DNA of 63,188 nucleotides, the filler included, from Collodictyon triciliatum (taxonomy: Eukaryota): the NCBI GenBank assembly GCA_043381765.1. It is 11 parts of 11 records of this genome, joined end to end, with 100 filler letters (N's around TTAATTAATTAA, not from the genome) between each part and the next. Parts side by side here need not be neighbours in the genome. Positions count along the whole stretch, not along the records: positions 12,471 to 18,613 come from JBHJMP010004685.1; 10 more parts are not named here. The stretch is one strand, 5' to 3'. Of the stretch, positions 12,901 to 60,861 are shown one piece after another. Positions within the stretch are counted from its first letter, which is position 1. The number at the start of each line of letters is the position of its first letter. The position numbers were made by a program, and so were the translations under genes. The notes under the pieces were generated by a model. It ran no database searches, had not been told where the DNA came from, and saw only the letters and a program-made list of their open reading frames with translations.

Positions 12901-13533
12901 AAAAGAACGAATATGCCCGACGCAAACACGCCTGCCTGTCATAAAATCGCTATTTCGGTGCATGATGAAATATTCCTAAATCTTGTTTTTGTGCTCAGTT
13001 CCCTTTTTTTAAGATGGTTTTTTTAAGATGGTTTTTTTAAGAACAAATATTTTAATCACTGATTGCTCTTTAAACGTGCTGATGGAAAGTGAGATTCTCA
13101 AACAAGGGGTTTGCCGTTTTTCTGGGGTCGTGAATTTCGTCGTCAAAATGAAGACTGATTGTTATACTTTCTAAAAATTTGAACCATAACATGAACAGAC
13201 ACGTTTAGCCAAGGATAATATTTCGTGTGGGTATCAACATAATTCTAACTTAATGAAATAATTGTAAAAAAAATAAAAATAACATTCTCATTTCTTCTCT
13301 AAATTATCAAGTTTGCTTCAAATCTCGCAACATTCAATAATTGTGAAGCGGTTGATAGAAGAGGAATTAGAACTAAGAGATCACTTTTATGCGAGAACAT
13401 CTATTGAAGATATGTGAAACTCAATTATAACTCGTTCTTTATCCACAAGATGAGAGATCTTCTAATGTTTACAATATGAACAAGAAACATCTGTGAAATA
13501 GGATTGTTGCACAATGAAATTTTTGCATATGAA

Positions 13534-13585
13534 CTCCATGATATTATATTTATCTAATTATATAGATAAATATAGTATCACTCCA
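13534..13585. mobile_element. 42-bp TG...CA hairpin flanked by a 5-bp direct repeat (possible collapsed transposon or footprint)
   Basis: The sequence is CTCCA [TGATATTATATTTATCTA attata TAGATAAATATAGTATCA] CTCCA. The arms are 17/18 complementary. Confidence 0.45.
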
Positions 13586-14165
13586 ACTATAATATACTTT
13601 TATTTTAATTTTTTTTTTTAGTTTACTTTGGCTGCCCTAACAAATATCTCAGAAAAATATAACAAAGAAGGGTGTTTTTCAATTTAGCGCAGTGATTCGC
13701 AATAAGCCTTTCGTTTTTGCTTCGTTCTGTTGTGTCTTTTCGCTTCCGCGCGCCCATCTTTTGACAGACCGGCCCAATGATGACAATTCTGGAAAACAAT
13801 GATTTTACTCCACAAACACCACAGTTTATAAGCAGCCGAATGCGCCTTTGTCAGATCCAACCACAGAAACCAACGATCTGACTTTTTTTCACAGCCCCCT
13901 TTCGCCTCTACTGCTTAAAAGCTTCAGATTCTCAGCCTTCCAACAAAACAACAAAGCAACAAAACAACAAAACACAACAATAAAACACAACAGCAATAAT
14001 AACAAACTGTAGAAACAAGAATGAACAGATACGTGAGAAAACCAAAGCCCTTAATGCCCGACACATCCCCAGCTCACTAAAGCGACACCAGAGCCACTCA
14101 ACACACCATCCCAACAGGACTACCTCAAGAGCCAGAAAGAGAGTCAGAAAGAAAGAAAGAAAAAG

Positions 14166-14554
14166 ATGCTTTTCCGGTCACTCTTCAGAACACTGCTTCC
14201 CAAAACCCCGCTGCACCAGCAGACAACCTTCGCATCGGCGTTCTCCACCAGAGGCTCGGGCCTTTCTTCCGGAAACGGACACATCGACTATGAAAAGCAT
14301 CTGACTCAGCTGGGCTCAAAGGTCTCTGCGCCGTCCAACCCAGAAAACGCTGCGCTGGAAACCTGCCCGAATCCATATCTCTCAGACCCATATGTCATCC
14401 GCTTCACCTGCCCCGAATTCACCAGCCTTTGTCCCATCACGTCGCAACCGGTGCGGTTCCAGTTTTCTGAACGAAGCACAATCTATACTCTTTCCTACTC
14501 TGATATCTTCTCTTTCGTCGTCTTTCAGGCCTTTTTTTTTTCTTTCACCTCCCT

Positions 14555-14616
<62 letters not shown>

Positions 14617-15196
14617 TTGTTGTTTGCTCAAGTATGGCATTGCTGCTGCTTAGGACTTTGCGCACATTGTGATTGACTATGTACCCCGCAAACTGATTGT
14701 GGAGAGCAAGTCCCTCAAGTTGTACATGCAGTCCTTCCGCAATCATGGCTCGTTCCACGAGGCGTGCACTGTTTCGATCGGAAAGAAGCTTGTGGACCTG
14801 CTTGACCCTCACTTCCTTCGCATCGGCGGGTAAGAACGACCTTTTTTTTTCATTTGTACCCACATGTTTCTTCATTTCTTCATATCTTCATTTATTTATT
14901 TCCTTCTAATTCAGACACCAATCCAACATTTTTCTACTTATCTACTCATTCAATCGAACGATTTCTTTCTTTTCTCTGGTTCCATCGCGATGAATACCGA
15001 ATGTTCTAATTGGAGCAATTTCCTACTCGTTTGTCGTTGTTTTATCTTTATATATATATATATATATTCTATTTCGAATAGGTATTGGTACCCAAGAGGA
15101 GGAATCCCCATCGATGTGTTTTATCAAGCCGGCGAAGTGCCGAAAGGTGTTTGGCTCCCCGACCAAGGTGTGCCTGGATACAGAGGCCGCGGATGA
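14166..15196 (+). CDS. queF: NADPH-dependent 7-cyano-7-deazaguanine (preQ0) reductase QueF, type I, with an N-terminal mitochondrial-like presequence; 3 exons, 191 aa
   Basis: Exons 14166-14450, 14654-14829 and 15082-15196 are joined by GT-AG introns with matching phase. Motifs: [24 protein letters not shown], the QueF signature [23 protein letters not shown], and [18 protein letters not shown]. Confidence 0.95.
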
Positions 15197-15782
15197 AGCT
15201 TTAATGAAGCACTTTGCAAACGCACAGTTCTCATTTCCGCTTGGAACAAAACAAAATTAAAACAAAACCAACTAAATTTGCATGTTTTCCTACATAGTTT
15301 TTTATATTTTTTTCTTTCTTCTAAGCAAGCGTTGACATGAGAATTTAGATTTGATTTCACTTGTTGCTGAAGCACGAAAAAGAACCTTTATTCATTTACT
15401 ATTATGTGTATAGTCACTGTTTTGTAATGGCATGTGAATCAATACATCCCGTTCTCTCCTTCAGTCATGCGCTATAAAAAAGGCTTAGGCATCTTTCTTT
15501 TTCTTTTGTGCATAATATATCGACCTTTTTGGCCCACACGCCAAGCTAGACTTCAAGTTTCTTACTTTCACCCAAACAAACGCCCCCAAAGCAATTATTA
15601 TTACACTGCAGTGGCAAGCAAAACCCATAGCCATACGGATGATGATTTCTTTATTCATCTATGGATTTCCCCCTCACAAGGCCGGGCGAGTTTGGTGAGA
15701 AAACGGGGCGTTTGAGGCACAAATCCTCTCCCAGCTGGAATGCTACTGCATTCCCCGACCCCTTACAGATGCACACACGGGC

Positions 15783-18427
<2,645 letters not shown>

Positions 18428-18519
18428 CGTCTGCAGTCACACTACAAGGTCTGATGGCACATCGTGAGCGCCTCGCAAAGCTCCCCTTTCACCGCTCTTT
18501 TTTCCCTGCTTCCTTCTTC

Positions 18520-18571
<52 letters not shown>

Positions 18572-18713
18572 TCCCCCTCTCCCTCCCCCCCCCCCCCTTC
18601 CTCTTCTTCTCCCNNNNNNNNNNNNNNNNNNNNNNNNNNNNNNNNNNNNNNNNNNNNTTAATTAATTAANNNNNNNNNNNNNNNNNNNNNNNNNNNNNNN
18701 NNNNNNNNNNNNN

Positions 18714-19104: not shown

Positions 19105-22100
19105 TCACAGGTGCGAGTCATACGCCGAAAGATAAGCCGCGGATCTGCGGTGATGGGACTGAGCAGACGCAGCCGGGGCGGAAAGCGGCGCAGAATCCAG
19201 GAGCGAAACAAGATTCTCGTTGAGGCAAACAAGACAAGCCTGTTCCGGCACGCAATCGGCGTGGAATGCGTGGCCGCACGGGAAGGCAACAAGATTCGAG
19301 CCCATGGTGTGATCTGCAAGGCCGACTTCGCAGACTGGGCAGAGACTCCGCATGTCCACCACGGCACCCCAATGCTGGGCGCTGGCTTCTTCCCACTGGA
19401 ATGCGATTCCGCGGCCGTATTCGAAGCCGAGCGAGTGGATGGCTCCAGGCGCGGCGTTTGCTGTGAGAAATGCGAGCGTGTCGAGTTCGCCGCGGGTCTC
19501 CTTGTCCAGCAGGCCGCGCAAGGGCGGCGCAAGAGTGAGCGTCTTGATGGACCACAGATGGCTGTCAAGCACTTCCATCATGTTGCGCACAACCACGCGC
19601 TGATGTCGGTAGAGTTGGTGCAGATGCAGCAGTTTGCGGCAGATCACACGGGCTTCCCAGCTTGGGAGCGAAGCCTCGGACTGGAGTAGTTCCATCACAT
19701 ATGCAACCCCAAATTGCAGGACAAGGACATTCACCACCCGCTCCCATGTGATTCCGCTGGCGGAGTCTGCGCTCGCTCCTTGCATCGCTTTCTCAGCCCT
19801 GCTCTCTTGTTCTGGCTTGGAATCTGACTCCGACTCCAACTCTGACTCTGTTTCAGTTCGTTTGCTCAGATGCGCAAGCACCAGTTGCCACTCGACCGGC
19901 GTTCCGCTCTGTGCAAGGAATGCAAGCAATCCGCTCCAGTCGTCTGCACAGAAGAACAGATCCACGAGATCCGCGTGACGGCCGGATCGCTGGTACAAAA
20001 GCACAAGTCCTGCGTAGTAGCCTGTCTCTGCACACACTCGGGTGGCGTGCTCTGCGCTGTAGAAAAAGACGCCCGGATTCCCAAGGATTTGCATGAGGAG
20101 AGGATGGTGCGGCCATTCTGCAGATGCGCACTTGGATGCATTCGTGTTGCGGTGTTTGCTGTCGCTGCTGTCGAGCGGGCCAATGTGCGGAGGCGGATTC
20201 TCATGCAGGAGCGCTTCAATCCAGCAGTGGACAATAAACGTGTCCTGTCGGCTCACTAGGCGTGTTTCCATCAGGCGCATCAGAAACGACAGGACATGTT
20301 GAGGCTTGTGCGTTTGGATCCAGTGGTATGACAGGTGCGGGTGCAGCTTGTTTGCGGATCGAATGGCAAAGTCCACCACCGCAGAGGCGCTGATTCCCAC
20401 GATCACACGCTTGGCAACGCTCAAAACAGTGCACTGGTCGTCCAGATCGTTGAAGTACTCTACGGCGCTGAGGATGCTTTCGGTTCGGATCAGCGCAAGT
20501 ATGGCTTCGATAGCAGCTGTGTGCTCACGCGTCTTTTCGGCCTGTGCTACGATGGCCTCGATGCTACTCCACCGATGCTCTCGAATACATACATCGACGA
20601 TTCGTGCGTGGTCCAATACGTGAAAGTGCTTGCCGATAAATATGTGCTCTGCGCTTTCTGAGTCCTCACGAAGCATCCCAGATACAGATTGGTAGTCTCT
20701 GCAGATGAATAGCTCTGTGAGTTGTTGGGATATCGCATAAGAGTTGGTCTGATCAACTGCATTTGAATTGGCTTTAATTTCAGGGCCGCTCTGGGCTGTG
20801 CTTGCAATTACGTGGGCCTTTTCCTTTCCGAAATTGACGATACTGTCACCCTGGGAAGTTGGATTTGTGATGACATCCTCCAGTGTCGATGCTGGTGTAT
20901 TTTCAGCAGTAACGCTCACGGCTGGCAGAGCAGAACCTGCTGTTGCTGAGGAAGGCGCAGGGATGTTTGAAAGATTTTGTGGGGGTGAATTTCCGATATT
21001 TGCCTCCGGTACGTTAGCTTTGCGTCCCTGGTTGCTGCCTCCCGAACTTGCTGTGTGATGTGGCTTCAGAACGTAATCACCAAATATTGAAAACTTTCTC
21101 GATGCAGCTTGAGCAATTCCTTTCATCTGTTGTTGGGGTTGTTGGAATTGTTGGAATTGTTGTGATTGTTGTGATTGTTGGGATTGTTGTGATTGTTGGG
21201 ATTGTTGTGATTGTTGTGATTGTTGAGATTGTTGTGGTTGTTGTGATTGTTGTGATTGTTGTGGTTGTTGTGATTGTTGTGGTTGTTGCAAACTTTCTAT
21301 CTCCGTGTTTATGTCTGTTCCATTCAATACGTTGACATTACTATTGGGTACCGATACCTTGGGTTGGTCTGGTGTTATCGAGCCCACTTTTTCAGTATCT
21401 GCAACAATCGCATTAATATCGCCACTAGTCAGATTAGAAGTTACACTTCGCTTAGAAAATACCGGCGATTCGATCTGATGCTCAGTTGTGAGTCTTCCTT
21501 CGCCTTCCATCATAGGCGAGATCTGTGCACCAGCAGCCGGCTTACTATTTACCATTTTTTCGGTTGAATTCAAGTTTCTCTTGGGTATCAAAGCGGTATC
21601 CTCTCTTGGCAAGGGGGGTGATAGGATTGTGTCATCTCCTTGGCTACGCTGCGAACTTGGACCGGAGCTCAAGCTCGATGGTTGCGTATAAATTGTGGAT
21701 ACATTTGATGGAAGTACGGCAAAGTTTTGAGGTGCAAAAGCTGTGTTTGAAGATCCAGCTTGTGAGCTTGCCCTCTCACTCTTTGATACGATGCCCGGGG
21801 GAAGGATGTCTGTGACTCGAGACTTTGTACGCTTGGCCCGAGGTTTTCTGGCAAATGTAATGGATTCCAGGTCAAAGCCATCTCCGTGCCCGCTTAAACC
21901 TGCTGCTGAAACTTCCATATTAGATTGGTCCAGACCTTCAGCTTTTGGTTGCAAAGATTGTAATCCTGATGTTTCTAGATGTGGCGTGGTTGAGATTTGG
22001 TCTTGTGCAGGAACTTCTGAGTTTCCGGTAGCTTCCTGAGAGGCCGTTTTTTGAGTCAGTACCTCATTTGAAGAGATGGCCAAAGTGGCTGGGTCAGCCT

Positions 22101-24098
22101 GTTCGTCATCAAAAATCATCGATGGCGGGGCAGGTTCGATGTTAAGGTTGTACTTCTGCGCTATTTGCTGGTTTTATTTACAAAAAGAATAGATTAATAC
22201 TCCATAGATTGATGAACCAAAGGGTAGGATGAACTCTCACATTAAGAGAGCAAGTAGTTGTTGTGACAAAACAGATTGAGAGAAAAAGTGCAATATTCCA
22301 TGGGTTAGCATCAAGATATGGATTCACCTGGATGTCATCTAGCAAAGGGGAAAGGGTTAGGTCTTTGACTCGGCAACGCTCCACCTCACGGTACAGAGAC
22401 GTAATTGCACTGGGATTTTTCAGCCTGTACCGATTCAGTAAAGTGACGCATTTTTGGAATTGCGCTGACCGGATGTAATCCACAGCCAGAAGCTCAGGGT
22501 CATATGCTTGGACATGGCATATGGAAAAGCCACTGCGATACAGAACATAGTAGGAGTTCCCAACAGTGCACAAATCGACAAAGTTTTGGAGACCGGAATG
22601 GAGGATATTGATTTCGATATTGTTTACGTCGATGATACTGACATAGTTGTCTCCATATACAAGCATGTTATCGCAGAATGGGGCTACTCGACCGAAGTTG
22701 AATCGTGGAGGCACAGTCACTTTGAGCCCGCTTTCATCCAGGATTGGTACGCGTTGGTCACTCGTCACTTTAAAATTCAGGGTGTTGAGGACACGGCCTG
22801 TAGAAAGCTCTGCTACCCACACACGGTTCCCTGGGCGACTACTGAATAACACGCCTGAGCGAGACGGATGGAAACAGGCTCCGAAGAACCCGTCTCGGGT
22901 CTTTGTCCCAACCTGAATGGCGATGAGCTTCGTCAGCTCGAGGATGAAACTGCGTGTCAAGGTGGAGACGACTAAACATTCTGCGTTGTAGTCAAGTTGC
23001 ACAACACGCGAGTCGGACTGGAAAAGAACTTCGGTGTGGTTGCCCGACGCAAGGGACAATATTTCCCCAGTCACATCCCGGCCGAGAAACTGCCTCATGC
23101 CAAACTTTTTCGACTTGGAGATGCGTGTGATGCAGATGACACCATTGCTATCTGCAGAGAAAAGCCTGCGCCCTGCGTCATCCCATACAATATCTGTGAT
23201 CTCAGCGTCCTTGTGCTCTTGCACTCGATATAATAGCTATGCGTGGGAATAATTATTCAGACATTTCGAGTTTAATCTATATATTTATGATTCATATAGG
23301 GAAATATAAACCAACCACACGTGGGTTCAAGCCACAGTAAATAAAGTGGACAAAAAACAAACAACAACCACGCATACTCACCCTGTCTTTGCTCTTCATA
23401 TCTTCGATGGCCATCAACATAATCACCACTTGACCGCCCTCTAATGCCATAGCAACGATGCGCTCGTCTAGAGCAAAACGAATGCAAGTTACTGCGCCTT
23501 TCGACTGAGGAATCGGACGCAAGTGCATAAACTTCATGTCGCTACGATTGAAGTAGTAAAGTGCTGCAGAGGAACCTCCCAACACAAGGTAGTTTTGCGA
23601 GCAAGCAACTGCAGAAAACTTGACCTTGGACGAGCTTATTGGCTCCGGATACACAGTCAATCTCATCACTGGCCCTGGAAGCAGAAGTCCGCCATCAGAC
23701 TCGGACGAATCGTCCCCATCAAAAGTCGACGTTGTGGTTGCGGTTGCTGAAATCGATGAACCGTAACTTTCGCTTTCTGTGTGCGTGTTCGTGCGTGCAG
23801 ATTGTGAATCGGTGGCGTCTGTTTCGGTTCCTGTTTCAGTTGTTGTAGTGGCGTCCGTGGTTTCATCGCCGTCGGCTGAGTCAGCATGTGTTTCAGCGTG
23901 TGTTTCTGTCTGGGTTTCTGTTTGTATTTCTGATTCGGACTCGGCTTGTGTTTCTGTCTGGGTTTCTGTTTGTATTTCTGATTCGGACTCGGCTTGCGTT
24001 TCTGTTTGTGAAGTACTTTGGGAGCCGCTCTCTGCTCTTGTCTCAGCTTGCGTTTCGGTCGCGGTGTGGCTCGTTGATTCGTCGTTGGATTCGTCCAT
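19105..24098 (-). CDS. HPS5/TECPR2-like protein: N-terminal WD40 propeller, long low-complexity linker, helical region and C-terminal RING-H2; 3 exons, about 1560 aa
   Basis: Exons 24098-23382, 23236-22328 and 22167-19105. Motifs include FSAVACSQNYLVLGGSSAALY, DSRVVQLDY..LVVSTLTRS, VGTKTRDGFFGACF and RPGNRVWVA, as in the HPS5/TECPR2 N-terminus. The C-terminus reads CPVC..FPCGHAFHADC..CLVC. Confidence 0.8.
21133..21290 (-). repeat. Coding 9-bp repeat giving (QQS/QQP)n in the HPS5-like protein
   Basis: TTGTTGTGA-type units on the + strand translate to QQPQQSQQPQQSQQS... Confidence 0.9.
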
Positions 24099-24270: not shown

Positions 24271-24370
24271 NNNNNNNNNNNNNNNNNNNNNNNNNNNNNN
24301 NNNNNNNNNNNNNNTTAATTAATTAANNNNNNNNNNNNNNNNNNNNNNNNNNNNNNNNNNNNNNNNNNNN

Positions 24371-30311: not shown

Positions 30312-30739
30312 GTTAACTTTAAATTATATATGAGTGACTTTCTGATTCTCATGACAAATGATAATCATTCACGTGATGCTTTCTTCTTCTTTTTCCTTTC
30401 TTTTCTTCTTTTCTTCTTTTCTTCTTTTCTTCTTTTCTTCTTTTCTTCTTTTCTTCTTTTCTTCTTTTCTTCTTTTCTTCTTTTCTTCTTTTCTTCTTTT
30501 NNNNNNNNNNNNNNNNNNNNNNNNNNNNNNNNNNNNNNNNNNNNTTAATTAATTAANNNNNNNNNNNNNNNNNNNNNNNNNNNNNNNNNNNNNNNNNNNN
30601 AAAAAGAGAGAAAAAAAAAAGAGAAAAAAAAAGAGAGAAAAAAAAAAAGAGAGAAAAAAAAAAAGAGAGATAAAAAAAAGGGAGATAAAAAAAAAGATGA
30701 AAAGGAGAGCCCAAAGCTAATAAGTCTACACTCACCCAA

Positions 30740-33700
30740 TTAGTCATGGTAAATAGGAGGGTCAGCCAGCTGCCGTAGTAGAAATCTGTTGGGCTGAGAT
30801 GAATTTGCCATATCAGACGAGACTTTGTCGCCAATAAGCGTTGAATGGGACGTCCAAATAAGATGAAGAACAAACATATGTTTTTCATCATCTAATTTTG
30901 GAATCCAAACATAGATAAATCCATTTTCACCAGTGGTTATGAGTGTCTTGTAATCAGTGTTATATTTGACCGCACGCACTTGGTTATGAATCTGCTGCTC
31001 GAGTAGCATTCCATCTCCATGTTTCTTCACATTCAATATACGTAAAAATCCGTCACGACAACCAAAAACGACATATTCTTCGGAGTTGAGTGTCATCGTA
31101 TCATACGCATAGATAGGTGTTTCGCCTTCATACAGTATCACCTGATTTGACCGGAGTGCATCAAAAGAAAAATCAAACCGATAAAGGAGTCCAGCTTCAT
31201 CGCCTACAATCACAGAAAGGTTGTTATCACCATGGTATTTTGTAAAAATTGGTTCATTTGGACTTGTAAATCCGTCTTCTAGTTCATGTTGAATAATAAG
31301 GTCATCAGAAATTTCCAATCTTCCGTTTTGGTCGTTGTATTTGACCTCTTTGCACGTAATGCTTGATTCATCGCATATAAATATCATTTTTTTGTCGGAT
31401 AATATCTTCAGCCCAAATGAATTTACAGAATCATTCACTAACTTGGTCCTATCGTGCTGATATATTTTTGGATATTCATGACCCTCCAAATATTCCTCAT
31501 ACAACCTCACAGCATACAACCCCTTATTGGTGGAGTAAAGCATAAATTCCTCTACATCAGTGTGGAGGGTGAAGTGACGGATTCTATCGGTGTCTTCGAC
31601 AAATAAACACGGGTCGGTGTCATATTCAAGTGGAGTCAGTTCGAATATTTTTTTCTCTTCAGAGCTTAGTTGAAAATATACTTTAATTTTTGAGACTGCA
31701 ATGGTTGCGACAAGCGACCGAACCATCCCATCTACTACTACTGTTTTTAAACAATTGCCGGTAGAATATTCCCATACCTTGATTTTCCTATCGCTACTTC
31801 CAGTTACGATGACCTTTGATGATTCAAGTAGCCTGTCGATTTCGGACCCCCCTACAGAGGTACTTTTGTAACCCATTTCTGAATCGCATGTTGCTACCAG
31901 GGACAATGTATTGATAGCTTTTTGATGCCCAGAAGCCTTCTTCAGAAGCTCTCTTGAACTTATGCTCCAAATCCATGCCGACTTATCTTGACTACAACCC
32001 AGCAAGTAGTATTCTTTTTCATATTTGAATACATTCATGTGTGAGATCTCTCGGGCGTGTCCGTAAAAAGGTCTAATTATCACTCCCTCATTCACATTCC
32101 ACATATAAACCATGCGATCAGCTCCAGAGGAGATCAAATAATCCGAATTGCCTGTATCTGAGGGAACCCATTGGATGTCACGAATCCCCTTTTTGTGTTC
32201 ATCTTTCAATTTGATAGGCTTAGAATTTAAAAAGTCCGTGTCGAAGATTAAAACCTCGCGATCTATAGCAACTGCAATTTTATACCGATTTTGATAACTA
32301 ATAACCCGAATTGCTCGGACTTGCATGTTTTCGGAATTCAGGAGCAAAGGATCGCCTAGAGAAATGGTTTTTGTATTGGAATCAAAAAATATTTCATGAT
32401 ACTCAATATGCGGCAATGTACCTCCAAATATGATGTATATTTTGTCTTCTTTCTTGAAAAAATTGAGAGAGTTTATCGAGCCGCTATATTTGATTTGTTT
32501 AATCAGTAAATCTTCGATATTGTTATAAGATATCTTTGGGTCATACAAAAAGAAAGCCAAAGTTCCATCCATGGTGCTAACAGCAAAAAAGACTTCAGGA
32601 TTTTTGGTCAGTCCGAACAAGTCATCAATATTGTCGCTGCATTGTATTTCAAGAATTTGACCACCTTTCAAAAAGTCTGCTGGTATTACTATCTTTTTTG
32701 AACACATCGTGGCGTCCCATATGTAAATGGCACCCGTCTTATCTCCACTGATTATAAAAGTATCGTTCTCCTTCTTCACTAAAGATATTGCAGATATGAT
32801 TCCGCTGTCGTGGCTCATATTCACCAATGATTCGCAAGTATCCAAATCCCAAGCTAAAATCATATTATCAGATGCTGTGTAGAATTGCACAATCTCATCC
32901 GTTGCATATATTGCAGCGTAATTTACGGGGAATTTATGGACGAGTTTTGGAAGCTGCCCAAAATTCACCTTGTCGAGAACAGCCTTGTCAAATTTGCATC
33001 CTCGTAAATCAGCATCCTTAAATGTAGATCCAGTCAAATCAGAAAAAGAGAAGTCCACATATTGTAAAACAGACTGAGACAGATCAGCTTTCGGAATGCG
33101 TATATTTCGAAAGTCTTCTTTGTGAATTGGGATTCTAGCAAAATTCAGAATAGTAATGGCGGAACTAGCCGACTTTGCAGATTCGTTATGATGGCTTCTG
33201 CTTGAAGAATCTTTTATGATTCTTACCAACTTTTTTCTGAATGATTCATGTCTAGAGGCATAATCAGCAATAAACTGTTTTACAACGTGGTCTTTCTCAT
33301 CGAGCAAAGGGAGAATATTCAATTCTTTGGTTCCATTTTCTCCCCTAGCAGCATTAATTTCTTTAATAGCCAGTTTGGCGAGAAAGAATTCATGAATGGA
33401 GCGATGCACAAAGCCATAATTCTCTTGGGTGGCAGTGCTTTGAAATTTCCTTATCAGGACTCCCTTTCGGGTTTCATTTAACTCGAATGTGTTGCCAAAA
33501 AACATTGCCCACTTATCCCCACCACGGCCACCACCGCTCGACCTTTGAACTTGAGCCACAACAGCTCTATTTTCGAGGAGTTTTCTTGCAAAAAGCATGG
33601 AAAAATCCTCAAAGGTTGTAGTATTGAAGTATTTAGGGATTATCGAAGCATCAGACATCTTCTTGTGCCAAAAGTCAACAAATTTTTCGTAAATATCATA

Positions 33701-36502
33701 TCGAGATAGCTGCATGTGAGAGTCTAATTTTCTTTCGTGCATGTATTTTGGAAGAACTTTCATAATCAAGGATAGAATGAAGGGAGATTGCGAAGACTCC
33801 TTTAGACTTGGCGATCTAAATATCTGAGAAGTAATGGTTTCGGTGGAATATATAGTTTCAGGGTTGAGACCAACATACTGTCTCACATATTCTTCAATCT
33901 CAAAGTCTCCAAAGGGCTTCACTATGATATACTGAGTTGAACTCTGGTCCCATTCATTTCCAAGGCCAAATAATTCGTCCAAATCTCTTCTTGTCTCCTG
34001 AAGATTGTACCGATATGTGATAATAACATGATGCTTTTGAATGAATGATTTATTCTCACGAATTATCTTAAGTGCTCCCGCTTCATTTAGTTCGTCGTAA
34101 CCATCCATAATGAAAACGACTTTTCCATGCCTTTCAATCATTTCATATTCTGATGGAATGCTCTTTTTTAAATAATCCTTGATGTTTTTTGGATTTTCAA
34201 CAACCGGCAGGTTGATGAATATAGGGTAAGCCCCTGTCTGTTGCAAATAGAGCTTTCTTAGCCGATCTGTCTCTTTTTTAACAAACGTAGACTTTCCCGA
34301 CCCTGATTTACCCAGGACCACAAGCGTTCCAGGAGAGTCGTTCAGGAAGCTGTCGACCAATTTTTCAGCCACTTCAATGTTTTCATCATTAATGTTTCTA
34401 TATGCATTAATTTGTACATATACACTGTCCTCCTCAGCTTCATGTTGGTCATTAACGTTTGAGTTTTCAGAAGACGAGCTATGGGCTATCTCATGAGTTT
34501 TTATCTTGTTTTGGTAGTCTTCAGAACCTGTTTCAAATAAATTTGTGGGTATACTCTGCTCATCTGTTCTTGAATTAATAATGTATAACTTTTCGAGATT
34601 TCGACCAAAATCTCTTTCAACTAAGTCTATGAATTGATTTCTAGGCGATTTCGGTTGCATTTTGTAGGCCTTTTCATTACTCCTCTGCAGTATATTCTTT
34701 ACAGCTCTGGAATAGATGTCGTTGGTAATGAGCTTACGGAGATGGTGAATGACATGAGTGCCGTAATATGGCCTTTGCTTGCTGATAAAAAGGTCACTTG
34801 TCATTTCCTCAACAATAGAAAAGGAAAATTTAGAACAATCCCTGACAGGTAACTCAGCCAAGTGTATGAATTCCACCACAACAAACCATGCGAATTCGCT
34901 TGTCTTATCGGTCTCAAAAATATATTCAGCAAATACCTTGGCATCGTGTAATTTGTGGGCCAGAATCAAAGACCTAAAGAATATGAAATTATCGTACCAG
35001 ATTTCACGGTCACGCTCCTTAATAAACCTCCTTCTTGTAGAGTGATATACATCTATTACACTATTTGAGCTTGATGGTTGTTCTTCCTCGATTTCAGAGT
35101 AGTTTGTGTACTTATGATTCTTTCCTGGCATCTTTAATTTTTCTTCCTGGTATTTTATGTGAAAGGATTTCCCACCAAACAAGCGAATAAGGCCTTGATA
35201 AATCTTTTCAAAGACTGGATTCAGTTCCGGATTAAGATTGTGCGGTGACTGCACCAATGTCTTGCAGATGCGGTCATAATCATATTCTTCCTTGCCCTCT
35301 TGACTTAATTTTAAATGGAAATTTTTTATAGCGAGAGAGTCCAACAAAAACCCAAAAGCAATCATCATATCTGTACTGCTGTTGTCCCAGTAAGGGTTAA
35401 CACTGAGCATAACGACCTTTTTGATCGCACAATATATTAACTGTTTCAAGAACCGGTCGAAGACTGGTATATCAATGAAAAGAATAGACCGGGCTACTGA
35501 TTGCAGGAAATTAGGATCAGTTGATAGTAGTGTATACATCGCCCCGTCTTTATTATGATGTCTTTTTCCAGATTTTACCTCTGAAGTATCACGTTTCTCT
35601 TCTCTTTCTTTCTCTACTCCTTTTTTCCCACCTTCTGCATCGTCACCCATTTTCTCTATCTCAGATGCTTCGACTTTTTCCTTTGCTTGTCGAGCCAATA
35701 TTTTCCACAATTGAAAGCAAATGACCTTTTGATGACTTTCAGCTAAAATCCCGAGTTCAAAAACATCTCGGACAGCAACATCTTCGTTAGCTGCCTTCCT
35801 TAGGATATGAAGAACGAGTGGCATGTGACTAGCACCTTTGCCGAAGCGAATGAGATAAGCAATCTCTAGGAGGTTTCTGGGTGCGTGGGGTAAGATAAAA
35901 TTTTCCAATTCGAGGAAAGTTTCTCTAGTACTGAGTGATTTTTGCACAGGTCCTCCATCACTTTCTTTATCTGTCTTGGGGTCTTGTGTCTTCATTTCAT
36001 CTTCTCCTGAGATTCTTGTTTGTCGGCTATCAGAGGCGACAGCATCTTTATTATCAGGACTTTTTTTCTTATCTGATTCCTGCGTTTCTTTATCTCCTTC
36101 GTCCTTGTGGGATTTTTCTATTGCTTCGGATGATATAACAACATTGGGGCGGCCTGAAGAGAAAGTGTTTCCTCCTCCACGTATACGAGGGGATATGAGG
36201 ATGCAAGGTTGTCTATACACATCACCCTGACTTGTCAAATACGGAGTCTTTGCCCAATCCAACGAAACAAATGCGTGGTGGTGTATCATTTTGTATAAAA
36301 GGTGCTGGTAATTTGTAGATTCTTGCATATGAGCCCACAAGAAGGAGCTCAGATATGGTTCTATAATCACCTGTGCTGGAAGCCACTCACTCAGGTCAGT
36401 GGGGCTCCTCACTTCTGCCAGGATAGTACATTCGTCGCTGGTGTTTGGACCAGAGCCCAGACGAATTCGGACATAGTCTTGATCGTTGAGTTGGGTCTCC
36501 AT
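30740..36502 (-). CDS. Intronless STAND/NLR-like protein: unknown N-terminal region, NACHT NTPase, pentapeptide repeats and WD40 repeats (1920 aa)
   Basis: Walker A VLGKSGSGKST, Walker B VFIMDGYDEL, PFILSL, winged-helix YGFVHRSIHEFFLA, SAITILNFA, pentapeptides ADLSQSVLQYVDFSFSDLTGSTFKDADLRGCKFDKAVL, and WD motifs such as LISSGADRMVYMWN and VTGSSDRKIKVWE. Confidence 0.9.
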   Translation of the reverse strand: METQLNDQDYVRIRLGSGPNTSDECTILAEVRSPTDLSEWLPAQVIIEPYLSSFLWAHMQESTNYQHLLYKMIHHHAFVSLDWAKTPYLTSQGDVYRQPCILISPRIRGGGNTFSSGRPNVVISSEAIEKSHKDEGDKETQESDKKKSPDNKDAVASDSRQTRISGEDEMKTQDPKTDKESDGGPVQKSLSTRETFLELENFILPHAPRNLLEIAYLIRFGKGASHMPLVLHILRKAANEDVAVRDVFELGILAESHQKVICFQLWKILARQAKEKVEASEIEKMGDDAEGGKKGVEKEREEKRDTSEVKSGKRHHNKDGAMYTLLSTDPNFLQSVARSILFIDIPVFDRFLKQLIYCAIKKVVMLSVNPYWDNSSTDMMIAFGFLLDSLAIKNFHLKLSQEGKEEYDYDRICKTLVQSPHNLNPELNPVFEKIYQGLIRLFGGKSFHIKYQEEKLKMPGKNHKYTNYSEIEEEQPSSSNSVIDVYHSTRRRFIKERDREIWYDNFIFFRSLILAHKLHDAKVFAEYIFETDKTSEFAWFVVVEFIHLAELPVRDCSKFSFSIVEEMTSDLFISKQRPYYGTHVIHHLRKLITNDIYSRAVKNILQRSNEKAYKMQPKSPRNQFIDLVERDFGRNLEKLYIINSRTDEQSIPTNLFETGSEDYQNKIKTHEIAHSSSSENSNVNDQHEAEEDSVYVQINAYRNINDENIEVAEKLVDSFLNDSPGTLVVLGKSGSGKSTFVKKETDRLRKLYLQQTGAYPIFINLPVVENPKNIKDYLKKSIPSEYEMIERHGKVVFIMDGYDELNEAGALKIIRENKSFIQKHHVIITYRYNLQETRRDLDELFGLGNEWDQSSTQYIIVKPFGDFEIEEYVRQYVGLNPETIYSTETITSQIFRSPSLKESSQSPFILSLIMKVLPKYMHERKLDSHMQLSRYDIYEKFVDFWHKKMSDASIIPKYFNTTTFEDFSMLFARKLLENRAVVAQVQRSSGGGRGGDKWAMFFGNTFELNETRKGVLIRKFQSTATQENYGFVHRSIHEFFLAKLAIKEINAARGENGTKELNILPLLDEKDHVVKQFIADYASRHESFRKKLVRIIKDSSSRSHHNESAKSASSAITILNFARIPIHKEDFRNIRIPKADLSQSVLQYVDFSFSDLTGSTFKDADLRGCKFDKAVLDKVNFGQLPKLVHKFPVNYAAIYATDEIVQFYTASDNMILAWDLDTCESLVNMSHDSGIISAISLVKKENDTFIISGDKTGAIYIWDATMCSKKIVIPADFLKGGQILEIQCSDNIDDLFGLTKNPEVFFAVSTMDGTLAFFLYDPKISYNNIEDLLIKQIKYSGSINSLNFFKKEDKIYIIFGGTLPHIEYHEIFFDSNTKTISLGDPLLLNSENMQVRAIRVISYQNRYKIAVAIDREVLIFDTDFLNSKPIKLKDEHKKGIRDIQWVPSDTGNSDYLISSGADRMVYMWNVNEGVIIRPFYGHAREISHMNVFKYEKEYYLLGCSQDKSAWIWSISSRELLKKASGHQKAINTLSLVATCDSEMGYKSTSVGGSEIDRLLESSKVIVTGSSDRKIKVWEYSTGNCLKTVVVDGMVRSLVATIAVSKIKVYFQLSSEEKKIFELTPLEYDTDPCLFVEDTDRIRHFTLHTDVEEFMLYSTNKGLYAVRLYEEYLEGHEYPKIYQHDRTKLVNDSVNSFGLKILSDKKMIFICDESSITCKEVKYNDQNGRLEISDDLIIQHELEDGFTSPNEPIFTKYHGDNNLSVIVGDEAGLLYRFDFSFDALRSNQVILYEGETPIYAYDTMTLNSEEYVVFGCRDGFLRILNVKKHGDGMLLEQQIHNQVRAVKYNTDYKTLITTGENGFIYVWIPKLDDEKHMFVLHLIWTSHSTLIGDKVSSDMANSSQPNRFLLRQLADPPIYHD

Positions 36503-37776
36503 CCGAGGCCTTTACAAACTGGTTGGAGGTTGTTTTTTTTAAGAGGCAATCGTAAGTGTTTTTTTCTTTGGAGATATATGCGGCGGAATACGACTAGACG
36601 AAAATGAAAATTATGAATGAAGAAAAGAGAGAAGAAAAGAGAGAAGAAAAGAGAGAAGAAAAGAGAGAAGAAAAGAGAGAAGAAAAGAGAGAAGAAAAGA
36701 GAGAAGAAAAGAGAGAAGAAAAGAGAGAAGAANNNNNNNNNNNNNNNNNNNNNNNNNNNNNNNNNNNNNNNNNNNNTTAATTAATTAANNNNNNNNNNNN
36801 NNNNNNNNNNNNNNNNNNNNNNNNNNNNNNNNTAAAATCCGCCTTTCCTCTTGTATAAGGGCAAAGGTTAACAGGAGAAAAATTCCCGAAGAGCCGTGCC
36901 TCCCATGGCTCGGCTACTTCTTCTCCAAAAAAAAACCTTGAAAGGATGATGCGTCCTTTCTCGTAAAACTTCCTTCGTTGGCTACCAACAAAAAAAAAAT
37001 GAACCCCTCTTTCTTGCACAAAAAATCAACCCTTCACTATCAAAACAAACAACACAAAATCTCTTCCCCTGAACCGAATAATGGGGAACCCCCCAAAAAA
37101 GAATAAAGACAACCGAACCACGAAGCTCTTATGATAAGCGTTTATTACTTTTTTCTGCGTGTTTTTGTGCATGTTTTTGTGCATGTTTTTGTGTGTTCTT
37201 TGTACATTTTTGTGTATTTTGTGTTTTCGTGTGTTTTTGTCTATGTTTTTGTGGGATTTATATAAGTTTGCGCATGGGGTTATTGTTTCAAGTGAGAAGA
37301 CCCTGTTGGGTGCTGATTCACTTTTCCTTTATTCGATCCAAGGCACACATCTTCTAGAGTTGCAGGATGTTAGTATTTTATAACTCTCGCCATCATTAAT
37401 ACCTGCTTCAACTCGTGCAAGACAGCGGAGGTTTTTTCGTTGATTCGACGTTTCTACGAACGAACACGAATGCATCACGCGGGGTACGGTATTTCGTCCC
37501 TTTGTCGGGCGCAATCAACCGAGCCCAAATGCCATCTCATTCTGGCGTGCCCGCATTTTCGGCGAATGTTGAGGTGCAACTGGTTCCACATTTGAAAAAT
37601 CGTCTCGTGAGTTGCAAAACAGTATAAGTACACATGGTCTTTTGCCATTTTTCCAAACACTATTCTGAGTGTTGTTCACAAATCAGTCAATACTGGGGAA
37701 CAAGCAAACCGTGTCATGAAAATTAACTCAAACCTACCCGTGCCATTATGACCTTGAGCCGCACTGATACTAACTC

Positions 37777-52010: not shown

Positions 52011-52941
52011 NNNNNNNNNNNNNNNNNNNNNNNNNNNNNNNNNNNNNNNNNNNNTTAATTAATTAANNNNNNNNNNNNNNNNNNNNNNNNNNNNNNNNNN
52101 NNNNNNNNNNGTTTAGTGCGCCAAAGCCCTATTGAAGGCAGGGGGAAACCCAAACACGACGGATGTGAATGGCCTTTCGCCCATCGACTACATAGACAAC
52201 AAAAACGCGGGTCTCACAGAGGTTCTGACGGAAGGTACACTTATCACCCAGCGCCTTTGCCGTTGAGTATGGTTTCTGATTCTGACCGCTGTTTTTCCTG
52301 CAGCCATGAAGAACCCGCTTGCTTTCCAGAGTCGTCTCCCAGTGTCTGCATATTAATAAACATTCATCAACCTTGTACCACCTTCGTCATTATTTGCCAG
52401 CCAAATCCAAAGGAATATCGAGCTTGCGGACGATGCTAAATGTCATCAGTCCCGTGCATTGCGCCTTTGGCGCTTGGGATGGAGTATTTAGATAGATAGA
52501 TAGAATGGTGGATAGAAAGATAGATAGAAAAAAAAGCCAAGAAATGGATGTATAAAACCACGTGATAAATATCTCGCACAAGAAGCGATATCACACAATT
52601 AGGTAGCTAGATGATAGTAGCCATGATATATTTTGTGGTTCTCTTCATTTATTAAAGAATGTGCTTGTGACAGAAACGTGATGGACGCAACGACATTGCG
52701 ATTTGCAAAGTAAAGCTTCTGTTGCAAAGGCGTGGTTGAGGATGAGAAAAAAAAATATAAAACGAAGCTCCATATTGTGTCTTTCCCTTCTTATGGGCTT
52801 TTTTTTTCTGGTGGATTCAAGCGAAGAGAACACGACGGCAATCCTAAAAGCCAATATAGAAGAGTCGGACCAGGGAAGAAGCGCCGACAGTTCCAGTTGA
52901 TATCGTTGCAGACAGTCACACGGCGCGTTGGTCAGGCTGGC

Positions 52942-54231
52942 CTACTGGTTCTTGGGCTTTGGCTGAGCCGGCTGGGGCGGGCGGGAGAGTGAGGCTGAGG
53001 CTGGGGCGGCTTCCATAATGGCCATGCGCATTTTAGAGGCGGTGTCATTCCCACTTCCAGAGCTGCCCACAAAGACGGCGTTTCCGCGGGCGGTTTGAGA
53101 GACTTCTTTGAGGGTATCAAAGTACTGATTCATCATGACAAGCTAATGGTCACCAGAGGAAGAAAGAAAAAGAAAAAAAAGGGAGAAAAGTGTGTGAGTA
53201 AATCAAAAGTAAGGATTCAGATAAGTTATAATACCATATACCGGCCCAGAAATAAGGGTTTATTGGGTATGGTAGTTATCTCATAGGAATTGATCATAAT
53301 TGTTTGACCTGCATGATGCTATCAGGGTCGATGCCTTGGACGGTATGGGAAAACTCCATGATGCTGGAGCCGAGACCGTCAATAATAGCCTGGAAGAATA
53401 AAGGGCATTACATAACTCGCCTGAGGAGAGCAAGATAATATTCCATCAGCCACCGCACTCTCGCAACAGAAATCACTTGCCTTACGCTGACGAGCAAGAC
53501 CGACACCAGACAGATACTTGCTGTCTGCCTCTGCTTCGGCCTATTTTACGACAGACAGAGAGGCAATTAACCGCAGGGATTGGCAATCATGTTTATGGAC
53601 TATTGAATAACATGAAAGAAATATAGAAGAAAACCCAGGGAGTATATGTGCATAAGTTGTAAGGAAAAAGAAAAGGTACATTTTTGACGGTGCTGTACTT
53701 GTTTGCCTCAGCCTTGGAGACTGCGGCGACGCGGAGGCGCTCCTGGGTGTTGATCTCGTTCATGGCGCGCTTGACGTTTGCGTCGGGATCGATGTCGGAG
53801 ACAAGGGTCTGGTCGACAACATAGCCGGTCTCCTTCAGCTCGCGCTCGAGCTCTGTGCGGACGGAGACGGCGATCTTGTCCTTGTTGACAAAGACCTCGT
53901 CGAGAGACATGGACGGGACGGTGGAGCGGACGACGTTCTGGACGTAGGCCGAGATCTGGGCCATGGGGTCCTGCATGTTGTAGAAGGACTCGTAGACCTT
54001 GTCCTTGTCCACGTGGTAGCGGATGGCCACGTGGAGCGCAACAAAGACGTTGTCGTGGGTCTTTGTCTCCACACGCACAGACGCAACCTGCATGCGCAGA
54101 GACACGACGCGCACGGCATTGTCCACGCAGCAGATCAGGCAGTGGAACCCGGGCTGCGCGACGCGGTCGAACGCTCCGCACTTTTCGATGATGGCTGCGC
54201 TGTTTTCGCTCACGCTGTAGCAGACTCCCAT
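52942..54231 (-). CDS. SPFH/band-7 protein, HIR (hypersensitive-induced reaction) type, 4 exons including one GC-AG intron
   Basis: MGVCYSV..., VETKTHDNVFV, IDPDANVKRAMNEIN, N|AEAEADSKYLSGVGLARQRK|AIIDGL and Q|LVMMNQYFDTLKEV, matching the HIR subfamily pattern. Confidence 0.9.
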
Positions 54232-57666: not shown

Positions 57667-58525
57667 AATAGCTCTCTATAATTAGAAGCCGAACGAAAAA
57701 ATAAATATATTATGGCCCACATCCCATAAGGCATATGAAATAAGGGGGAGCATAGTTGGTTGTCCATGATCCTAATTCAAAGCGCGCCCTTGTGACGTAT
57801 TTGCTTTTGCGCCACAATAATCCGAGCAAAGCTTCCATGTCACACATTAATCATTATCCTTTTTGCTCATTGATGAATTTGAACACAAATCTATTCACGC
57901 TGCCTACTGCTTTCAGCGGAGCCCGTTTGGGCATATGTCCCGCACTATCCCCTGACGCTTTTGTTTTCTTTTGTTTTGTTTTCTTTTTTCTTTTTCTTTT
58001 TTCTTTTTCTTTTTTCTTTTTCTTTTTTCTTTTTCTTTTTTCTTTTTTCTTTTTCTTTTTTCTTTTTCTTTTTTTCTTTTTTTCTTTTTTTCTTTTTTTT
58101 CTTTTTTTTCTTTTTTTCTTTTTTTCTTTTTTTCTTTTTTTCTTTTTTCTTTTTCTTTTCTTTTCTTTTTCCTTTTCATTTTTGTTTTTATTATTGTTTT
58201 TTATTATTGTTTTTTATTATTGTTTTTTATTATNNNNNNNNNNNNNNNNNNNNNNNNNNNNNNNNNNNNNNNNNNNNTTAATTAATTAANNNNNNNNNNN
58301 NNNNNNNNNNNNNNNNNNNNNNNNNNNNNNNNNAAATAAATAAAACAAAATAAATAATAAATAATAAATAAAACAAAATAAATAAAACAAAATAAATAAA
58401 ACAAAATAAATAAAACAAAATAAATAAAACAAAATAAATAAAACAAAATAAATAAAACAAAATAAATAAAACAAAATAAATAAAACAAAATAAATAAAAC
58501 AAAATGAAACAAAACAGCAAGCTCA

Positions 58526-60460: not shown

Positions 60461-60861
60461 ATCTTATTTTTTTCTTCCTTTTTTTTCTTTTTTTCTTTTT
60501 TCTTTCTTTTTTTTCTTTTATAATTTTTTCTTTTTTTCTTTTTTTCTTTTTTCTTTTTTTCTTTTTTCTTTTTTTTTTTTTCTTTTTTNNNNNNNNNNNN
60601 NNNNNNNNNNNNNNNNNNNNNNNNNNNNNNNNTTAATTAATTAANNNNNNNNNNNNNNNNNNNNNNNNNNNNNNNNNNNNNNNNNNNNCTTTTTTTCTTT
60701 TTTCTTTTTTCTTTTTTCTTTTTTCTTTTTTCTTTTTTCTTTTTTCTTTTTTCTTTTCTTAATCTAAGGCAATCATGCTCATACGCACCAACTTAGTGCA
60801 CACAAGAGCAACTTTTGCTGCTGACGCTACGAACTGAGTCTTCAGAGAGCCACATAATTCA

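Follow-up and report, generated by a model that had tools for sequence, protein, structure and literature searches.

Introduction

Eukaryotes are said not to make queuosine and to salvage queuine instead (PMC5699537). However, a bacterial-type route has been described in Chloropicon, whose nucleus encodes a bacterial-like TGT, QueA, QueG and YhhQ, a transporter of 7-cyano-7-deazaguanine (preQ0) and 7-aminomethyl-7-deazaguanine (preQ1), all predicted to be mitochondrial (PMC12301720, 2025). TGT, QueA and QueG are also present in red algae, such as Galdieria, and earlier work cited in the same study reports that various algae and protozoa possess a bacterial-like TGT derived from chlamydiae (PMC12301720). 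Here we describe a gene for QueF, the preQ1 synthase that acts on preQ0, in a stretch of 63,188 nucleotides joined from the genome assembly of Collodictyon triciliatum (GCA_043381765.1); this whole stretch is referred to as the window. It is a genuine spliced and expressed nuclear gene of a collodictyonid protist, a member of the CRuMs and close relative of Diphylleia rotans.

A sequence-only reading of this locus had started from the premise that eukaryotes obtain queuosine only through QTRT1/QTRT2 salvage, which the enzymes of Chloropicon and the red algae have dated. These enzymes give a bacterial-type Tgt/QueA/QueG route a eukaryotic precedent, to which QueF would add an upstream step. Our literature search returned no paper describing a eukaryotic QueF and none holding both queuosine and Diphylleia, and the Andalucia mitochondrial proteome paper contains no queuosine terms; supplementary tables, which lie outside such a search, might list genes of this kind. 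An intron-bearing, probably organelle-targeted QueF of a eukaryote appears to be undescribed.

Results

Gene structure and splicing

The coding sequence is distributed over three exons and amounts to 576 nt, corresponding to 191 codons and a TGA stop (Table 1). Coordinates and translation agree in full with the model first proposed, namely three exons, two phase-consistent GT-AG introns and a complete QueF of 191 residues, and the two introns split conserved motifs as had been noted. The reading frame opens upstream at 14055. Since the ATG at 14166 is the first in this frame and no further Met occurs before Met120, the N-terminal extension of the protein is necessarily translated.

Both introns are AT-rich, with a GC content of 0.305 for intron 1 and 0.302 for intron 2 as compared with 0.549 for the coding sequence. 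A poly-T run of 59 nt is located inside intron 1 (14557-14615), and homopolymers and short-unit repeats are frequent across the introns and spacers of the window. We also considered codon composition as a marker of origin. The GC content at third codon positions (GC3) of QueF is 0.64, within the wide range of other genes of the assembly (0.39-0.86; bacterial median 0.82), and is not discriminating.

A search of public sequencing runs with positions 14100-15400 returned RNA-type runs that share words with the query at 0.28-0.32. DNA metagenome runs gave small word shares of 0.07-0.19, from which no inference on habitat was drawn. Assembled contigs, rather than reads, of runs X1, X2, X3 and X10 were aligned to positions 14630-15500. 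X10 is a poly(A)-selected metatranscriptome from a separate study, and the assignment of X3 as RNA is a guess. In record 4 of X3 (690 nt, 95-99% alike), positions 14653-14828 are joined directly to 15081-15272 (176 + 192 letters). The same joint is found in record 3 of X10, between 14760-14828 and 15081-15155 (69 + 75 letters). Before 14653, the loose ends of the contigs from both runs consist of 30 letters of the window, 14420-14449, which precede the final G of exon 1. The evidence for the junctions thus comes from aligned contig pieces for intron 2 and from loose ends for intron 1. The one-base offsets at the joints arise because an identical G flanks both sides of each joint, making the alignment ambiguous, and they are compatible with GT-AG borders. 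Both predicted junctions are accordingly found spliced in the contigs of two separate studies, of which one used poly(A) selection.

Within exon 2, the X3 contig differs from the window at 14683, 14689 and 14692. All three are third codon positions and the encoded Val, Arg and Lys are kept, which fits purifying selection in a related strain. The contig coverage of X1 is limited to 15119-15272, and X2 gave no contig. The contigs of X1 and X3 both end at the same position, which weakly indicates the end of the transcript near 15272, contig ends being no proof of an RNA end.

Family membership and active site

Exon 2 alone matches the QueF family of Pfam, PF14489, with 81.4 bits (cut-off 27.3, E 5.6e-23), a score that places the similarity far beyond chance. 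The exons were scanned one by one against TIGR03139, and each remains below its cut-off of 86.9 bits. Exon 1 aligns to profile positions 3-37 with residues 61-95 (35.4 bits, E 8.1e-9), and exon 2 to positions 38-94 (75.9 bits, E 2.2e-21), so that the profile runs gap-free across the first junction. In exon 3, a bacterial QueF gives a tblastn match at 15083-15127 (E 1.3e-7). The window protein contains one PF14489/TIGR03139 stretch and, with its 191 residues including the extension, has the layout of a unimodular QueF. TIGR03139 describes the short preQ1 synthase of the Bacillus subtilis type, labelled 'QueF-II', which we take to be equal to the 'type I' of the older literature.

The full-length D. 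rotans orthologue, P0001 (EukProt EP00002 P006592), reaches 145.4 bits against TIGR03139, an equivalog score, and only 55.4 bits against the bimodular model TIGR03138 (cut-off 293). P0001 also aligns with the B. subtilis QueF structure (PDB 4f8b) at E 1.8e-34, with the Cys, the Asp, the QueF motif, the Glu and the second Cys in register.

The family is defined by Cys55, Asp62 and Glu97 in B. subtilis numbering and by the motif E(S/L)K(S/A)hK(L/Y)(Y/F/W), an NADPH-binding helix that includes Glu78; a protective backdoor Cys99 is present in 61% of unimodular QueF and is typical rather than defining (PMC5372742). In the window protein, the catalytic Cys89 lies in PEFTSLCP and shares its column with the Cys of 4f8b through the alignment of P0001. 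Asp96, the first codon of exon 2, is part of QPDFAH, the counterpart of QPDFA in 4f8b, and ESKSLKLY (residues 112-119) fits the QueF motif letter for letter. Glu131, the substrate anchor, and the backdoor Cys133 belong to FHEAC (residues 129-133), corresponding to FHEDC in 4f8b. Every motif named beforehand, from Cys89 and the Asp96 that follows intron 1 to ESKSLKLY and FHEAC, is found at its predicted place.

The conserved residues support the assignment of the gene product as a catalytically complete unimodular QueF. No sign of changed chemistry is seen in the sequence, and as an enzyme the protein would be an ordinary QueF. Because the gene is a spliced and expressed protist gene with this apparently complete active site, it is reasonable to propose that the organism is able to reduce preQ0 to preQ1.

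Relatives of the Collodictyon QueF

The protein database listings comprise the best 120 matches to each query. Among the matches listed, the best one to exon 2 is P0001, with 97% identity. This protein is a complete Trinity open reading frame (ORF) of D. rotans (Collodictyonidae, CRuMs). We regard it as the orthologue, with 147 of 183 aligned residues identical (80%) and an identity of 89% across the 152 columns used for the tree. The two proteins are collinear over both exon junctions, and P0001 residues 149-185 match exon 3 (15083-15193) with 89% identity. P0001 has an N-terminal extension of its own, whose sequence has diverged; it is an unannotated transcriptome ORF and represents another species or strain. 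The SPFH gene elsewhere in the window, 91% identical to a D. rotans protein where the next match reaches 55%, likewise places the source organism near D. rotans and apart from that strain.

Beyond the diphylleids, the window QueF is 69-70% identical to four alphaproteobacterial proteins and one metagenome protein over the whole bacterial length. Alphaproteobacterial preQ1 synthases, for example those of Roseibium/Stappiaceae (P0074), Filomicrobium (P0006) and Kaistia (P0013) and the Brevundimonas loci L001-L006, show 78-83% identity in exon 2, and their collinear stretch extends from the LTQLG motif to the C-terminus. Unlike the window protein, they comprise 150-157 residues and have neither introns nor a presequence. 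Of the best 80 loci in 185,579 prokaryote species genomes, 78 are labelled alphaproteobacterial or unspecified Proteobacteria, and the two exceptions are bins labelled Spirochaetales and Halopseudomonas. Judged from these comparisons, the bacterial affinity of the window QueF is alphaproteobacterial.

In a quick, midpoint-rooted maximum-likelihood tree of 102 rows by 152 columns, the window protein groups with that of D. rotans, with SH-aLRT support of 98 and a stem of 0.45 substitutions. In this tree 50 of the 95 inner branches are unresolved and several rows have long branches. The eukaryotic pair has no supported sister group; the best value, 81, is obtained with three uncultured bins.

A wider search for relatives gave 4487 hits at E <= 0.001. 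Twenty of the 150 listed were examined, mostly those with long N-terminal extensions, and most of the twenty resemble ORFs of bacteria that read through from upstream or carry fused domains. Ten of the long relatives were looked up, and no taxon is attached to any of them. When metagenomes were scanned with exon 1, each of the 80 loci kept proved to be bacterial-like (44-68% identity, for the most part over residues 40-95), with no diphylleid genomic contig among them. The ESM Atlas returned bacterial QueF clusters only, with scores of 0.89.

N-terminal extension

The window QueF is 36 residues longer than the 155-residue bacterial homologue P0002. Asp and Glu are absent from its first 35 residues, among which are 3 Arg, 1 Lys, 1 His and 11 Ser or Thr, and the extension lacks a hydrophobic core of the signal-peptide kind. 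Residues 2-12 form an amphipathic 11-mer, whose moment is equalled by 62 of 1000 shuffled sequences. The D. rotans extension has a similar composition and is weakly conserved with respect to the one in the window, as opposed to a core that is 89% identical. This is the usual pattern of a cleaved presequence, in which the extension diverges fast and the core is conserved. Furthermore, both proteins have a stretch similar to the R-2 and R-3 cleavage motifs of the matrix peptidase, Arg29-Gly-Ser in the window QueF and Arg-Leu-Phe-Ala in its D. rotans counterpart. An obligatory, fast-evolving extension with many Arg, Ser and Thr and no acidic residues, placed before a conserved core, suggests a presequence, and on these heuristic grounds we consider it fairly probable that the ~36 residues direct the protein to the mitochondrion.

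Contig context and other features of the window

At least 11 contigs make up the window, connected at ten sites by joiners of the form N44-TTAATTAATTAA-N44, which carry stops in six frames. Most of the joined contigs are ~6.1 kb long, each terminating in simple repeats, and they were probably sorted by size. As a consequence of this arrangement, gene linkage can be read only inside one piece. The piece that carries QueF also contains an amino-acid transporter gene (Table 1), in which six or more exon blocks match, in collinear order, residues 18-429 of the EukProt transcript protein P0396 (53-74% identity). One exon frame of the transporter runs into a long poly-Ile/simple-repeat stretch. The earlier statement that spliced eukaryotic genes lie next to QueF on the same contig holds for this transporter on 12471-18613, whereas the other genes are on separate contigs. 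The latter, among them genes for HPS5, PP2C, RING and NACHT-WD40 proteins, show only that the assembly is eukaryotic.

Table 1. Features of the QueF gene and of the remaining window, in positions of the whole stretch (UTR, untranslated region)
Feature	Position	Strand	Description
Exon 1	14166-14450	+	Codons 1-95; start ATG, N-terminal extension, start of the QueF core, Cys89 in PEFTSLCP
N-terminal extension, coding region	14166-14270	+	~Residues 1-35; putative mitochondrial presequence; end approximate
Intron 1	14451-14653	+	203 nt, GT..AG, phase 0, at the Pro95/Asp96 boundary, within the QPDFAH motif
Exon 2	14654-14829	+	Codons 96-153 and two bases of codon 154; Asp96, ESKSLKLY, Glu131, Cys133
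Intron 2	14830-15081	+	252 nt, GT..AG, phase 2, cuts Gly154 in IGG/YWYPRGG (slash, junction)
Exon 3	15082-15196	+	Last base of codon 154 to codon 191, TGA at 15194-15196; C-terminal part of the T-fold, tail ...PGYRGRG
Probable 3' UTR	15197-15272	+	Contigs of X1 and X3 both end at 15272; X3 has a 9-letter loose end there
PF01490 amino-acid transporter gene	15786-18382	-	Same piece as QueF (12471-18613), convergent, ~600 bp away
GC-rich (0.62) frame	8425-9648	-	407 aa, no Pfam match
HPS5-like gene (BLOC-2 subunit)	19105-23236	-	Two long exons, beta-propeller and TPR, E 1.1e-35 and 1.1e-7
NACHT + pentapeptide-repeat + WD40 frame	30740-36511	-	1923 aa uninterrupted, no introns, nearly fills its contig piece
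Profilin, first exon	39825-39950	+	PF00235, E 9.2e-14
SPFH/HIR-type gene, multi-exon	52981-54231	-	First exon 91% identical to a D. rotans transcript protein; next match 55% (Phalansterium)
Joiner sites	6136-6235, 12371-12470, 18614-18713, 24271-24370, 30501-30600		
Joiner sites (continued)	36733-36832, 45770-45869, 52011-52110, 58234-58333, 60589-60688		

Several of the other frames show features of their own. The long NACHT frame at 30740-36511 has a GC3 of 0.385, as compared with 0.51-0.86 in the other genes measured. It may encode a STAND NTPase belonging to the protist, or the DNA may come from a different organism within the assembly. The HPS5-like translation has a RING-like Cys-rich end. 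Long open frames on either strand overlap the GC-rich frame at 8425-9648, which is common in DNA of high GC content.

Discussion

Proposed function

We tentatively interpret the gene as encoding a mitochondrial QueF of alphaproteobacterial type that would supply preQ1 to a bacterial-type queuosine route, a proposal whose likelihood we place a little short of even. The structure, splicing and expression of the gene, the conservation of its residues and its bacterial affinity are shown by the data above, and we infer its activity, its localisation, its downstream partners and the source of preQ0. The mitochondrial location is proposed because of the presequence-like extension and the algal precedent.

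By homology with the B. subtilis enzyme (PMC5372742), Glu131 would anchor preQ0 in the active site. Cys89 is then expected to attack the nitrile, forming a covalent thioimide, and NADPH bound at the ESKSLKLY helix would reduce this intermediate to preQ1. QueF consumes two NADPH per turnover. Asp96 would serve as a further family-defining active-site residue, and a disulfide between Cys133 and Cys89 may have a protective role.

The gene may have been taken from a bacterium and may subsequently have gained its two spliceosomal introns and the ~36-residue extension. In the mitochondrion, preQ1 would be passed to a bacterial-like TGT, then to QueA and finally to QueG or QueH. The end product would be queuosine on mitochondrially encoded tRNAs with GUN anticodons, as proposed for Chloropicon and red algae, with the difference that preQ0 would also be usable. 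The mitochondrial DNA of D. rotans encodes 27 tRNAs, sufficient for all amino acids (PMC4779616), so that GUN-anticodon substrates should exist in the mitochondrion. The preQ0 itself is most likely salvaged from bacterial prey, with synthesis by the protist as the main alternative. Salvage fits the known eukaryotic pattern, and E. coli YhhQ, which transports preQ0, provides a precedent for it (PMC5372724).

Several observations weigh against this interpretation. As the tree provides no supported sister to the eukaryotic pair, it does not distinguish a later horizontal transfer from inheritance through the mitochondrial ancestor, and it gives no donor order. Compared with shuffled sequences, the helix score of the extension ranks in the top 6% in the window protein, and in D. 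rotans, where 312 of 1000 shuffles reach it, the score does not stand out. The remaining pathway was sought in the 63-kb window by tblastn with alphaproteobacterial QueC, QueD, QueE, Tgt, QueA and QueG, and no match below E 0.2 was obtained; QueF, used as the control query, recovered all three of its exons. In the two alphaproteobacterial genomes searched for queries, QueC, QueE, QueD, QueA and Tgt are present in both and QueG in one. PF02592 (YhhQ) is absent from both, and for this reason YhhQ was not sought in the window. Free preQ0 is, moreover, a minor metabolite in comparison with the queuine and queuosine of prey tRNA. A role in salvage only would for that reason be somewhat odd, leaving room for de novo supply, and a conserved QueF would be more easily explained by a steady internal source of preQ0. 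Finally, QueF is never mentioned in the Chloropicon study, so that the link of the window QueF to that route is one of analogy (PMC12301720).

Alternative explanations

A fuller pathway is conceivable, in which the protist also encodes QueD, QueE and QueC together with GTP cyclohydrolase I, makes queuosine from GTP, probably in the mitochondrion, and is a queuosine prototroph that acquired these genes together or inherited them from the mitochondrial ancestor. QueF is kept under purifying selection in two or more diphylleid lineages, which points to preQ0 being steadily available, most simply through self-synthesis, and both the alphaproteobacterial affinity of QueF and the whole queuosine set carried by the alphaproteobacterial genomes searched are in line with it. 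On the other hand, QueF is the only queuosine gene found in the 63-kb window, and the Chloropicon precedent is a salvage route without preQ0 synthesis (PMC12301720). A 2026 survey of the QueC family also finds authentic QueC absent from Eukarya and attributes the 43 eukaryotic entries of the canonical cluster to contamination or to transfer from symbionts, although it may have omitted protist transcriptomes (PMC13329287). We regard complete de novo synthesis as unlikely. It is less probable still that QueF is cytosolic, with an extension that has no targeting function and with preQ1 inserted into cytosolic tRNAs by QTRT1/QTRT2, exported or converted further. The weak helix score in D. rotans would agree with this location, and in S. 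pombe and human cells the eukaryotic TGT is able to incorporate a derivative of preQ1 (PMC9561289). Yet the extension is necessarily translated, carries no acidic residue, has abundant Arg, Ser and Thr, and evolves fast next to the 89%-identical core. In Chloropicon, each of the four bacterial-type queuosine proteins has a predicted mitochondrial location (PMC12301720), and preQ1 in cytosolic tRNA would be left unfinished without QueA and QueG.

An orphan or repurposed QueF, for example one that removes preQ0 derived from prey or feeds another 7-deazaguanine product, would account for the lack of a partner gene in the 63-kb window. Relatives of QueF have indeed been recruited elsewhere, as in the archaeosine enzyme QueF-L (5jyx, matched by P0001 at E 4.9e-8). 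We nevertheless consider this quite improbable, as all residues specific to preQ0 reduction and NADPH binding are kept, the bacterial relatives are 69-70% identical, those named by source being called preQ1 synthases, and the orthologue P0001 scores as a TIGR03139 equivalog. There is next to no likelihood that the gene is an artefact, whether through bacterial contamination or chimeric assembly, or a pseudogene. Such an origin could be suspected from the same 69-70% identity to bacterial enzymes and from the short contigs joined by linkers, which leave most 'neighbours' unlinked to QueF. However, conserved motifs are broken up by two GT-AG introns of high AT content, poly(A) RNA contains the spliced form, the frame is intact, and a full-length transcript exists in a second species. 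The introns, the poly(A) RNA and the six-exon eukaryotic gene on the same contig piece together rule out bacterial contamination, in agreement with what had been concluded from the sequence.

Significance

A spliced, expressed and conserved QueF extends the eukaryotic queuosine toolkit one step upstream of preQ1, to preQ0, and widens the phenomenon to a deep-branching heterotrophic lineage, the CRuMs. It makes two questions testable, namely whether some eukaryotes can synthesize queuosine by themselves, and whether organellar queuosine metabolism goes back to the ancestral mitochondrion or was pieced together by separate transfers. A bolder possibility, which we hold to be unlikely, is that diphylleids are the first known queuosine-prototrophic eukaryotes, with a nuclear-encoded pathway from GTP through preQ0 and preQ1 to queuosine in the mitochondrion. 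Such a pathway could be a relic of the alphaproteobacterial ancestor of mitochondria, trimmed elsewhere to TGT, QueA and QueG or lost.

Comparison with known systems

One of the closest known counterparts of the window protein is the unimodular QueF of B. subtilis (YkvM; 4f8b, 4fgc, 5udg), with which it shares a single T-fold domain of fewer than 200 residues. The Cys, the Asp, the QueF motif, the substrate-binding Glu and the backdoor Cys of the two align by way of P0001. Unlike the bacterial gene, the Collodictyon gene is a eukaryotic nuclear one with two spliceosomal introns and a ~36-residue extension, and its C-terminal tail (...YRGRG) is of the alphaproteobacterial kind. The bimodular QueF (YqcD; Vibrio cholerae 3bp1, 3s19) belongs to the same T-fold superfamily and is weakly matched by P0001 (E 5.1e-10), but contains two tandem T-folds in ~280-290 residues. 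Archaeal QueF-L (5jyx) is likewise a weak match from this superfamily, in a PDB entry that names an archaeosine synthase. On these comparisons, the window protein is neither a bimodular QueF nor a QueF-L.

With respect to the pathway, the nearest parallel is the route of Chloropicon and the red algae, where nuclear-encoded bacterial queuosine enzymes are predicted to be mitochondrial and into which the window QueF would fit as a further member. In contrast to the Collodictyon locus, where QueF is the one component known, the Chloropicon route starts from imported preQ1 (or queuine) and belongs to the Archaeplastida rather than the CRuMs.

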